NCBI RefSeq assembly: GCF_057098645.1
Contig: NZ_CM169472.1
Strand: one strand, 5' to 3'
Length of the DNA: 64,000 nt
The position numbers were made by a program. Below are positions 43,901 through 46,900 of this stretch, piece by piece. Positions within the stretch are counted from its first letter, which is position 1; each line of letters opens with the position of its first letter.

Positions 43901-46900
43901 TCCACTATCGGTTGCAGGGTAAACGCGGGCAATTGCTGCTGGGATAATTCTTGCGAAATAGCAATGTTGACCTGCAACCGCGACTGGAAGCGCGCCTTTT
44001 CAATTTGCAGATAAGCATTCACATGTTCAATTTCGTCGGCGAGAGTAACAAACTCCGAAGGCCGCTTTAAGTTTTTGCGGAAAAAAGTGGAAAGATACTG
44101 CACCAGCTGGCTGGCCTGTTCGCTGTCGCGGCGGATCACCGCTTTAATGGTGTTAAGCGCATTAAACAAAAAATGGGGATTCACCTGGGCGTGAAGCAGT
44201 TTGATCTCTGACTGGGTGAGCATCGCTTTTTGCCGCTCATATTGCCCGGCAAGGATCTGCGCCGAAAGCAATTGCGCAATCCCCTCACCCAACGTGCGGT
44301 TGATTGAACTGAATAAACGGTTTTTGGCTTCATACAATTTGATGGTGCCCATCACCCGCTGATTTTCACCACGCAACGGAATTACCAGCGTCGACCCCAG
44401 TTTGCATTGCGGATGCAAAGAGCAACGGTAAGGTACTTCGTTGCCATCAGCGTAGACCACTTCACCGGTTTCAATCGCTTTTAAAGTATAAGTTGAAGAA
44501 ATCGGTTTGCCGGGTAAATGGTGGTCGTCACCAATTCCGGTAAAGGCCAGCAATTTCTCTCGATCGGTAATCGCGACTGCACCAATATCCAGTTCCTGAT
44601 ACAGCACCTGAGCCACTTTCATGCTGTTCACTTCGTTAAACCCCTGGCGCAAAATGCCTTCCGTCGAGGCTGCCACTTTCAGCGCAGTGGCAGAAAAAGC
44701 CGAAGTGTATTTTTCAAACATCGCGCGTTTATCGAGCAATATACGCATAAACAGCGCCGCGCCGACGGTATTGGTGACCATCATTGGCGCAGCAATATTA
44801 CTCACCAGACGCACCGCATCTTCATAAGGTCGGGCGATCGCAAGGATGATCAGCATTTGCACCATTTCAGCGACGAACGTGACGGCACCGGCGGTAATGG
44901 GGTTAAAGACTTTATCAGTGCGCCCGCGGCGGATCAGGATGCTGTGTACCAGGCCACCGAGTAATCCTTCAACGATGGTCGAGATCATGCAACTTAACGC
45001 GGTCATGCCCCCCATCGAATATCGATGTAAGCCGCCGGTCAGCCCAACCAGCCCACCGACGACCGGACCGCCGAGTAAGCCGCCCATTACCGCGCCTATC
45101 GCACGGGTATTGGCAATAGAATCGTCAATGTGCAACCCAAACCAGGTGCCCATGATGCAGAAGATGGAAAAGACGATGTAGCAGAGAAATTTATGCGGCA
45201 GACGAACCGTGACCTGCATTAACGGTATGAATAATGGCGTTTTACTCATTAACCATGCAATGACTAAAAAAACGCACATCTGCTGAAGCAGCAGCAACAC
45301 CAGATTAAAATCGTACATACCCGCAAACCACACTTCCCTTTAAAACGCGTAACATACATTGCCTGCGTTTAACTTTCTTTGAACTCTTGCAGAAAAATGA
45401 GAATTCGTGAGTACGATCACTCAAAATCGCCTGGCAAAAATAAAATCACCCTATAGATGCACAAAAAACGGGCAAAACTACCTGGTTCGCAAAACTGCGT
45501 CTAAAGTTAAACCGGGACCTCGCGAGCAAGGGTGAGACGATGGCGCTTTACACAATTGGTGAAGTGGCGTTGCTTTGTGATATTAATCCTGTCACGTTAC
45601 GCGCGTGACGCAACATTTTTAAAAATCAACGAAGATCGTCCAGGAGCGCCGATTTTCAAGGGTTGGACAGATAATTCGTTTTCGATGTCGACGAACTTCG
45701 ACGGATTTCGCCTATAAAAAGTGTCCCATACATGCCCCATTGATGCCCCATAGACAATATCAGCAATTGACACTGGTTATCTATACAACTAAAAATAACA
45801 CCTGTACATAACCACAGTTACAGGAGGGTGTTATGCGTGTTGAGAGCTGTATCGCTAAAGAAAAAATCAGCAAAATGCCAAAAGGTTCTGTTCCTGCCCT
45901 GCAACAGGAAATGCTGCGCCGTATCAGGAAACGATATGACAATGCAGAAATCATCATCAAATCTGCCAGTAATGATGGACTCACTATTTTAAGAGCCACA
46001 GATAAAGAGTCCGCACACAAATTTGTACAGGAAACACTTCAGGAAGCCAGGGAAACAGCGGACGACTGGTTTATTCACTGACTAAAATCCCGTCCACATG
46101 CCGGGAATTTCCTATGTCCGAAGAAAATGGTGTGGTTAACTAAGCAAAAGTGTCCCTTTATCGGTATAGCAACTCATTTTGTTAACATACGGTTGCAAAA
46201 TTGATGACAAGTGTTTATTTTATCCACAAGAAATGTATGCAAACCAGAATTGGGAAATGCATTTATAAAATAAGGAATAGCAGATATGTTTGCAGCAAAG
46301 CCCGAATTAAGTCAAAGATGTATTTCTGGACTCCTCACAACTGGGCCAAATGATGAAAACGTAAATAATAAACCGTCAAGTGATATGCCGAACAGAATCA
46401 AACCAGTTGTAAGCGATTCACAAATCGGTATATATACAACTGACAGTAATACTCTGAAGGATGGATTGTGTAGCCAAGCCCACATAGGAACTCAACCTTA
46501 TCGGCCAGGTGCTGACTCGCCGATAACTGTGAGATCATTCCTACAAATCACACTTTCCAACAATAATTACAAATCATTAGAGCATCTGCAAACACGAGCA
46601 GAGAATTATCTGAGGTATCGCAAAGCAGAAGAGAATATTCTGCGTTCGACCGTTGAGGGGCTAACCAATCCAGAATCTCCTGTATTCAAACAAACAGCAT
46701 GGATGGGGCATCTGGAGCGTGGCCTTTGGAAAACGGAAACACGCTGGGATGGAAACGACCGCGAGCAGCTAGGCAAAGAGGCTCTTGGCTCAGAGGAGCC
46801 AAAACCTGGTTCACCATTTTACGGTAGTCGTGGACTAAAATTATCCGACAGTGCGCATTCTGCCTTCTCAATGATGCTGTGCGGTTCTGAAGGTCCATTC

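Follow-up and report, generated by a model that had tools for sequence, protein, structure and literature searches.

The 64,000-nt stretch of DNA analysed here (the window) carries a gene for a small DinI-family protein. The gene belongs to a BP-4795-like lambdoid prophage, integrated in a chromosome of the E. coli O145:H28 type, and lies 226 bp inward from the mlrA(yehV)-side end of that prophage. We favor the possibility, at a probability of roughly 70%, that this gene is prophage cargo, that it is expressed from a promoter with two LexA operators and that its product acts on RecA. The arrangement as such is already annotated in the GenBank records of VT1-Sakai and BP-4795. What appear to be new, in the sense of not having been described previously, are two details of this allele: an Arg at the position of Trp71 of E. 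coli DinI and the weakened state of its LexA-like boxes.

The dinI-like coding sequence (45833-46081, plus strand) is an intact ORF of 82 aa with an ATG start, and direct reading of the sequence places a Shine-Dalgarno element, AGGAGG (45822-45827, plus strand), 5 nt before the ATG. A sequence-only reading of this DNA had proposed an 82-aa ORF with a strong ribosome-binding site and a DinI-family match along its length, and both proposals held up. The protein matched the Pfam DinI profile PF06183 over all of its 63 positions (1-63; E 5.8e-15, 55.8 bits against a cutoff of 24.2 bits) and PHROG 189, 'RecA filament binding protein DinI', over profile positions 71-149 of 151 (E about 4e-24; 4.1e-24), and phmmer aligned it at full length with E. 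coli DinI (PDB 1GHH/7YWA; E 2.3e-9). The residue pattern on which the earlier assignment had leaned, 'QET..E.ADDWF', fared less evenly; it does reflect the family match, and ETADDWF is present in the C-terminal acidic helix, but it is loose enough to mask an R that stands for the W of DinI QETWESADDWF. An AlphaFold2 model (pLDDT 84.9) has three strands plus helices, and its best Foldseek matches were 7YWA_A, a structure of DinI in complex with the RecA filament, and 1GHH (TM 0.81-0.84, rmsd 2.0-2.1), all remaining matches having E > 0.05. Sequence, profile and predicted fold thus support membership of the DinI family. The protein is of the same length class as chromosomal DinI of E. coli, with the same predicted fold and the same C-terminal ...ADDWF helix, but it is only 38% identical to it and has two-residue insertions after K9 and near residue 60. 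Given that it scored 55 bits against NCBIfam NF007893, the equivalog model for chromosomal DinI with a cutoff of 111, we refer to it as 'DinI-like' and not as an orthologue of dinI.

The gene had also been placed at the prophage end, and the junction confirms this. The 5' fragment of the host gene mlrA (yehV), cut by the prophage insertion, occupies 45540-45605 on the plus strand; it is a partial CDS in RM13514 and is identical to the yehV' fragment of VT1-Sakai. The att core at the prophage/host junction (45588-45607) corresponds column for column to the 20-bp 'attachment site' of AP000400, phage DNA begins at about 45608, and window position 45608 is where the linear BP-4795 record stops. 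The region from the att core to the promoter contains an 11-bp direct repeat in two copies (ATGCCCCATTG and ATGCCCCATAG; 45732-45753, plus strand), of which there are three in L005 and four in BP-4795; our guess is that these are integrase arm-type sites. An Rfam scan of 45300-49500 found no RNA family. Elsewhere in the prophage, the annotation of RM13514 describes frameshifted tail and portal genes; the J-like ORF in the window is intact (1172 aa) despite these annotations, and we do not call the prophage defective.

The top promoter-like site in the 3-kb stretch 45300-48300 lies just upstream of the dinI-like gene and consists of a predicted -35 hexamer, TTGACA (45767-45772, plus strand), and a predicted -10 region, TAAAAAT (45790-45796, plus strand), found by promoter scan with matches at 10 of 12 positions. 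Across the predicted transcription start lies a candidate LexA box, ACCTGTACATAACCACAGTT (45800-45819; hereafter the proximal box), which contains the CTGT-N8-ACAG motif that the sequence-only reading had seen about 15 nt before the ATG. That motif is indeed there, as CTGTACATAACCACAG (45802-45817), with 15 nt between it and the ATG, and is the only one in the 64-kb window. However, 64 kb should by chance contain 0.76 copies of the bare core, and 56 of 100 shuffles had at least one, so that on its own it is not beyond chance; for this reason bare-motif statistics were set aside and the full 20-mer was scored with a heterology-index (HI) matrix built from 18 published E. coli operators. Among the 127,962 positions scored in the window the proximal box ranked first, with an HI of 9.0, a score that would be reached by chance with a probability of about 1-2.6e-6 at any one position and of about 2-5e-4 in 100 bp when both strands are counted. 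This is a moderate score, falling inside the leave-one-out range of the 18 true operators (0.6-12.8); with a symmetrised matrix the box scored 13.05, slightly beyond the highest value in the training set, 12.23.

A second LexA-like box, overlooked in the sequence-only reading, lies at 45771-45790 (CACTGGTTATCTATACAACT; the distal box), where it overlaps the -35 element and the spacer. One of its half-sites is degenerate, with CAA for CAG, and the validated dinG operator has the same TTG/CAA deviation. The distal box ranked second in the window, also with the symmetrised matrix, its HI being 9.6 when read on the minus strand and 10.9 on the plus. The two top LexA-matrix matches in 64 kb are therefore found 29 bp apart, flanking or overlapping the predicted -35 and -10 elements (45767-45796). 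The third-best match is at molR, which we take to be a LexA target; this match may provide an internal positive control. As in the window, the box of chromosomal dinI starts with ACCTGTA, although chromosomal dinI has one box in the operator table used whereas the prophage gene has two.

The same promoter anatomy is found in relatives. In an alignment of nine diverged homologous promoters the order -35, box, -10, box, ribosome-binding site is conserved; the CTGTA...ACAGT core of the proximal box, the CTG of the distal box, the -35 sequence TTGA.A and the -10 sequence TAAAAAT are invariant, and the sequence upstream of the -35 element is unrelated among the nine loci. The equivalent promoter is annotated in the VT1-Sakai and mEp460 records, and the equivalent proximal site in AP000400 (VT1-Sakai) carries the annotation 'LexA protein, putative SOS box'. 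Matrix score and conservation in diverged homologues thus both uphold the suggested resemblance to a LexA box, and identification of the proximal site as a LexA box is supported computationally. Judging from the sequence, the promoter is most likely shut off by LexA and the dinI-like gene is probably SOS-inducible.

Close counterparts of the whole arrangement are available for comparison. In BP-4795 (ORF85, dinI) and in JLK-2012 (dinI) the protein is 100% identical to that of the window, the DNA is 99.2-99.5% identical with the promoter and both boxes included, and the gene has the same position at the yehV/mlrA-side end. BP-4795 also has the same order of dinI, avirulence-like ORF and nleA, and differs from the window in its number of 11-bp repeats and in the neighbouring ORF, which is annotated as 418 aa and not 402 aa. 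More distant is H0001 of VT1-Sakai (Sp15), a 'DNA-damage-inducible protein I' with the same yehV site, att distance, promoter and two-box layout, but only 61% identity to the window protein by profile alignment (63% by tblastn against near-identical Stx1a-phage alleles). Its proximal box differs from that in the window by one base, and it keeps CAG in the distal box and W at the Trp71 position where the window has CAA and R. The next gene in VT1-Sakai is a YkgJ-like ORF where the window has its effector cassette.

These deviations raise the question of how well the window allele works. In the homologues the distal box reads CTG-N10-CAG, and the CAA of the window promoter is found in it alone among the nine aligned. 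The distal box has an HI of 4.7-5.8 in the mEp460 group versus 9.6-10.9 in the window, and the 9.0 of the proximal box compares with 2.8-6.6 in several relatives, the two boxes of mEp460 itself scoring 2.8 and 5.8. Both operators of the window allele are thus farther from consensus than those of its relatives, and repression may be leakier.

With regard to the protein, the DinI residues that contact RecA comprise an acidic patch (E24, E69 and D76) and a set of pocket residues (L13, L21, W71, W77 and F78). Six of these eight are identical in the window protein (E26, E71, D78, L23, W79 and F80) and one is changed conservatively, L13 being replaced by M15 as it is in all sampled att-end-class relatives. 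The eighth, Trp71, which is by alignment a residue of the pocket for RecA F203, is Arg73 in the window protein, encoded by AGG (46049-46051, plus strand), one base away from TGG. Among 121 family cluster representatives this position is W in 116, R in four and L in one. It has been found that W71A in E. coli DinI impairs RecA-filament stabilisation (PMC9926225). RecA binding by the Arg73 allele may be weaker or altered.

A more radical view of the same data is that the gene is a decaying or hypomorphic passenger, with relic boxes too weak for LexA control and a W-to-R protein without useful RecA binding. The unique CAA, the raised HI of the proximal box, the rarity of R at the Trp71 position, the impaired activity of W71A and the presence of S5 where Ile stands in 110 of the 121 representatives would all fit such a scenario. 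Nevertheless, we consider it quite unlikely. The ORF is intact and has a strong ribosome-binding site, and the allele is kept at an identity of at least 99% in 65 complete genomes as well as in phages of O84:H4 and O55:H7 hosts. The CTG...CAG core of the proximal box is intact, and its CTGTACAT half is also found in the documented LexA operator of sulA. Furthermore, dN/dS for the gene against its relatives is 0.09-0.22, that is, up to about 0.2, the same range as within the family and not above the rest of it, which argues for purifying selection and led us to reject a pseudogene or relaxed selection.

Our working model for the LexA-controlled, RecA-directed cargo gene is as follows. A sigma-70 promoter (TTGACA, a spacer of 17-18 nt, TAAAAAT) would read the dinI-like gene and would be overlaid by two LexA operators, one in the -35/spacer region (45771-45790) and the other across the transcription start (45800-45819). 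As long as the cell is undamaged, LexA dimers would keep the promoter occluded. On DNA damage, RecA filaments would form and provoke LexA self-cleavage, and the gene would be turned on together with the host SOS regulon. The groove of the RecA filament is the docking place of LexA, UmuD and lambda-type CI repressors too, and binding of the DinI-like protein would tune filament stability and co-protease activity.

It is also possible that the LexA-controlled promoter exists mainly for the gene that follows, with the dinI-like gene acting as a leader and the downstream cargo being DNA-damage inducible. This gene is a co-directional ORF of 402 aa (46286-47494, plus strand) called 'hypothetical protein' or EspV in RefSeq and 'putative avirulence protein' in BP-4795, for which, as for NleA, Pfam and NCBIfam gave no match; we treat it as an EspV-like putative type III effector. 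Its start is 204 bp past the dinI-like stop codon, and the interval 46082-46285 has neither a terminator-like structure (z +1.4 and -0.13) nor a plus-strand promoter-like site, so that one transcript may cover both the dinI-like gene and this ORF. VT1-Sakai is annotated with a single promoter for H0001 (dinI) and the next gene, H0002, and in the LexA-controlled dinI operon of Gifsy the functionally important gene is the downstream one. In addition, the 402-aa ORF was matched only within the dinI-like/402-aa ORF/nleA module among the matches listed, which are a sampled ranking, and 59 of 5,426 complete E. coli genomes have the whole module. Against this, a non-canonical promoter, perhaps under the control of Ler or H-NS, could lie in the AT-rich spacer of 204 bp. 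In most att-end-class relatives (mEp460, 1720a-02, Stx2_EH2201) the gene after dinI is convergent, which indicates that the promoter is conserved for dinI itself. We hold a promoter kept mainly for the effector to be unlikely, if worth keeping in mind; it overlaps with the favored reading of a RecA-directed cargo gene and is not exclusive of it.

The unit would probably end at a hairpin followed by U6 (47719-47760, plus strand; -29.6 kcal/mol, z -6.7), a likely intrinsic terminator that no shuffle of 200 matched in folding and that separates the dinI-like gene and the 402-aa ORF from nleA. Although nleA was reportedly described as SOS-regulated by Mellies and colleagues in 2007, we do not favor read-through from the dinI-like promoter, because this terminator intervenes and because nleA is found, among the matches listed, in other contexts without this dinI in most strains.

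There is precedent for SOS induction of prophage dinI homologues. In Salmonella such homologues were induced 4.6-23-fold by nalidixic acid (PMC8072944), and the LexA-box-containing promoter region of a dinI-headed prophage locus was required for mitomycin C induction (PMC3121763). The Gifsy homologues resemble the window gene in having a LexA box directly upstream, with SOS induction demonstrated experimentally in the Gifsy case. Unlike the window gene, however, they are located in the nin region, following the replication genes, and their single strong box is 19 bp away from the ATG. Their LexA-controlled operon matters because of a small antirepressor gene after dinI, which is the actual trigger of induction (PMC3121763). 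We found no experiment in the literature on the window gene or its att-end subclass and no usable expression data on EHEC prophage DinI-like genes in the published transcriptomes examined; a preprint on radioresistance deals with chromosomal dinI only.

In light of this precedent, the window could be thought to carry a module of the Gifsy or coliphage 186 Tum type, that is, a LexA-controlled operon whose antirepressor sets off induction of the prophage. Gifsy-1, -2 and -3, 186, Fels-2 and PSP3 all have DinI homologues in linkage with antirepressors under LexA control, and in SPN3UB, mEp237 and phages of Klebsiella and Aeromonas a small ORF and ninB come after the nin-region dinI. The window gene, though, is of another positional class, that of the b-region at the att end, and no plausible small ORF follows it: 46082-46353 contains only short ORFs of 20-50 aa, none resembling the SPN3UB gp59-type protein, and the sole one of at least 40 aa (50 aa, TTG start) has no similarity to that protein either. 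The next real gene is the 402-aa ORF, and a downstream antirepressor of the Gifsy type was therefore rejected. Nor is there a fusion as in Tum, which is likewise LexA-controlled and has a DinI-like C-terminal half but consists of 146 aa with an N-terminal antirepressor half, whereas the window protein, at 82 aa, is the DinI domain only. We consider a module of either type highly improbable here. The earlier proposal that this dinI-like copy could couple host SOS status to prophage induction kinetics is speculation, as no antirepressor gene follows, the operators are weakened and Arg stands for Trp.

The significance of the finding goes little beyond correct annotation, the window carrying a BP-4795-like effector-bearing prophage in mlrA with a DinI-like cargo gene that is probably SOS-inducible. 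Should Arg73 truly alter RecA binding, the allele would offer a natural variant with which to dissect the contacts between DinI and RecA. A bolder scenario, which we regard as rather doubtful, is that the LexA-controlled promoter transcribes both the dinI-like gene and the EspV-like putative effector as far as 47719-47760, that damage switches on the effector independently of prophage induction and that the Arg allele is an altered binder of the RecA groove. If true, a concrete cis-element would tie prophage-encoded effectors to the SOS response, and exposure of these O145-type strains to SOS-inducing antibiotics would increase effector expression if the EspV-like ORF is also driven by this promoter.

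The dinI-like gene (45833-46081, plus strand) encodes an 82-aa protein and carries AGGAGG 5 nt upstream of its ATG. That this protein belongs to the DinI family, as the sequence-only reading had proposed along with a strong ribosome-binding site, is well supported computationally: (i) an HMM search matched it to Pfam DinI with 55.8 bits, above the cutoff of 24.2; (ii) it matched PHROG 189 ('RecA filament binding protein DinI') with an E-value of 4e-24; (iii) it aligned over its full length with E. coli DinI (1GHH/7YWA; E 2.3e-9) and (iv) the only significant PDB matches of its AlphaFold2 model (pLDDT 84.9) were RecA-bound DinI (7YWA_A) and free DinI (1GHH), with TM scores of 0.81-0.84. 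A chromosomal dinI orthologue could be ruled out, given 55 bits against the 111-bit NCBIfam equivalog cutoff and 38% identity to E. coli DinI. Against relatives, dN/dS was 0.09-0.22 and so no different from the range seen inside the family; the gene is therefore under purifying selection.

The bare CTGT-N8-ACAG motif occurred once in the window and is expected 0.76 times by chance; we therefore built a full heterology index (HI) matrix, in which lower scores are closer to consensus, from 18 E. coli operators (PMC3009722). The motif picked out by the sequence-only reading proved to be the best 20-mer in the window: this proximal box, ACCTGTACATAACCACAGTT (45800-45819), scored HI 9.0 and ranked first among 127,962 20-mers, with a probability of 1-2.6e-6 per position for a score this low. 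The second-best match was a distal box, CACTGGTTATCTATACAACT (45771-45790), located 29 bp upstream (HI 9.6 on the minus strand, 10.9 on the plus). True sites scored 0.6-12.8 in leave-one-out tests with the 18-operator matrix, and once the matrix was symmetrised, the proximal box scored 13.05 (rank 4), slightly past the training maximum of 12.23. Judged by these scores, the proximal box is predicted to be a moderate to weak operator. The third-best match, AACTGGATAAAATTACAGGG (27136-27155; HI 10.1), ranked first under the symmetrised matrix (9.86). It closely precedes the yehH/molR pseudogene, and a published oligo confirms the sequence at molR. If molR is a LexA target, as we take it to be, this match may represent a genuine operator and serve as an internal positive control.

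The top promoter-like site in the 3 kb scanned (45300-48300) consists of TTGACA (45767-45772) and AAAAAT (last base 45796), separated by an 18-nt spacer. The two LexA-like boxes bracket this predicted promoter, the distal box overlapping the -35 element and spacer and the proximal box spanning the predicted transcription start. An alignment was made of nine distinct homologous loci, with proteins sharing 60-84% identity with that of the window. Invariant among them were TTGA.A of the -35 element, the distal CTG...ACA, the TAAAAAT -10 region, the proximal CTGTA...ACAGT core and the start codon; there was no conservation upstream of the -35 element. Of the nine, only the window, together with the identical allele of phage BP-4795, has CAA in place of CAG in the distal box, a deviation also found in the validated dinG operator. 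The boxes of mEp460 and 1720a-02 are near-consensus (HI 2.8 proximal, 5.8 distal). In one homologous locus (L006, 2160-2200) ACTTGT replaces ACCTGT in the same promoter, a C-to-T change in the proximal CTG core that raises HI to 11.5; this natural variant may be an operator-down allele. A LexA-operator reading of the boxes is thus well supported at the computational level, and the corresponding positions of the VT1-Sakai record (AP000400) are already annotated as 'putative promoter of H0001 and H0002' and 'LexA protein, putative SOS box'.

DinI contacts RecA through L13, L21, W71, W77 and F78 as well as E24, E69 and D76 (Gao et al., PMC9926225), and six of these eight residues are identical in the window protein. 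L13 is replaced by M, as in all sampled relatives of the att-end class, and W71 by Arg73, whose codon (AGG, 46049-46051) is a single base from TGG. Among 121 family cluster representatives this position is W in 116, R in four and L in one, the four with R being three close relatives of the window allele and one unrelated short contig. The W71-to-R substitution appears to be new; E. coli DinI carrying W71A is impaired in stabilising filaments (PMC9926225). Ser5 is also lineage-specific, with Ile there in 110 of the 121 representatives. Elsewhere, a DinI-like allele of Stx2c_PV98-693 (682-939) reaches 86 aa through a four-residue duplication (VDAL-VDAL) in helix 1.

The region 45400-46300 is 100% identical to E. 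coli O145:H28-type chromosomes. The minus-strand genes btsR (42917-43651) and btsS (43633-45333) are followed by a 5' stump of mlrA/yehV (45540-45605), and phage DNA begins at about 45608. The gene had been placed at the prophage end, correctly so, because homology with the attachment site that VT1-Sakai annotates puts the att core at 45588-45607, and the linear record of BP-4795 ends at 45608. This Stx1 phage is the closest phage (99.2% DNA identity over 45722-46100) and has the same gene order: ORF85 (dinI), ORF84 (avirulence-like) and ORF83 (nleA). The prophage splits mlrA (45540-45607), a regulator gene of biofilm and curli that is likewise prophage-split in many O157 strains. One paper found that the distal mlrA part was up-regulated when cells were treated with SOS-inducing antibiotics (PMC5931665). 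An 11-bp direct repeat, ATGCCCCATTG (45732-45753), is located between the att core and the dinI promoter, with two copies in the window, three in the homologous locus L005 and four in BP-4795; these are possible integrase arm-type sites.

Downstream are a 402-aa ORF (46286-47494, plus) and nleA (48146-49387, plus), and then minus-strand tail-fibre and tail genes. A 204-bp spacer separates the dinI-like gene from the 402-aa ORF; it contains neither a terminator-like fold (z +1.4, -0.13) nor a plus-strand promoter-like site, so co-transcription of the two would be possible. Upstream of nleA, a strong terminator-like hairpin (-29.6 kcal/mol, z -6.7) with U6 after it (47719-47760) suggests that nleA is probably a separate transcription unit. 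The 402-aa ORF had no Pfam or NCBIfam match and matched PHROG 26984 (unknown function) over its entire length; some RefSeq records call the ORF EspV, and BP-4795 has it as a 'putative avirulence protein'. Among the matches listed, it occurred only inside the module 3' of the window dinI allele. The full three-gene module was present in 59 of 5,426 complete E. coli genomes, and the nleA segment alone was also present in other contexts. The hairpin lies within an element of about 100 bp (47674-47772) that marks the left boundary of the mobile nleA cassette. About 1,800 of the 5,426 genomes contain this element again, with 86-97% identity, in intergenic DNA that carries no annotation, such as that 3' of ybhB. 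Reportedly, nleA was described as SOS-regulated by Mellies in 2007. Weak LexA-like 20-mers are found at 47346-47365 and 47988-48007 (HI 11.6-11.9 and about 14); the latter, 138 bp 5' of the nleA start codon and with CAA in one half-site, is probably too weak to be functional.

Phage dinI genes form two positional classes. The att-end (b-region) class, to which the window gene belongs, has 82 aa and two LexA boxes, frequently with a convergent gene on the 3' side. The Gifsy-like nin-region class (SPN3UB, mEp237, Klebsiella and Aeromonas phages) has 77-79 aa and one strong box (HI 0.8-1.5), and a small ORF and ninB come after dinI. We looked for an antirepressor-like ORF directly 3' of the window gene and found none. 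Experiments exist for the related dinI genes of the Salmonella Gifsy prophages: nalidixic acid induced them 4.6-23-fold (PMC8072944), and replacing the promoter region containing the LexA box abolished mitomycin C induction of the dinI-headed locus (PMC3121763). One group of DinI-like copies in Stx2a phages matches only over residues 11-81 (69% identity). Neither the conserved promoter nor either LexA box is present in this group (best HI about 20), and its members look as if they had been truncated at the 5' end or had acquired another promoter. The DinI-family and LexA-operator readings are already recorded in public annotations of the window phage and its sister phages, and the second box missed by the sequence-only reading, the weakened candidate operators and the W71-to-R substitution would be modest additions to this known picture.
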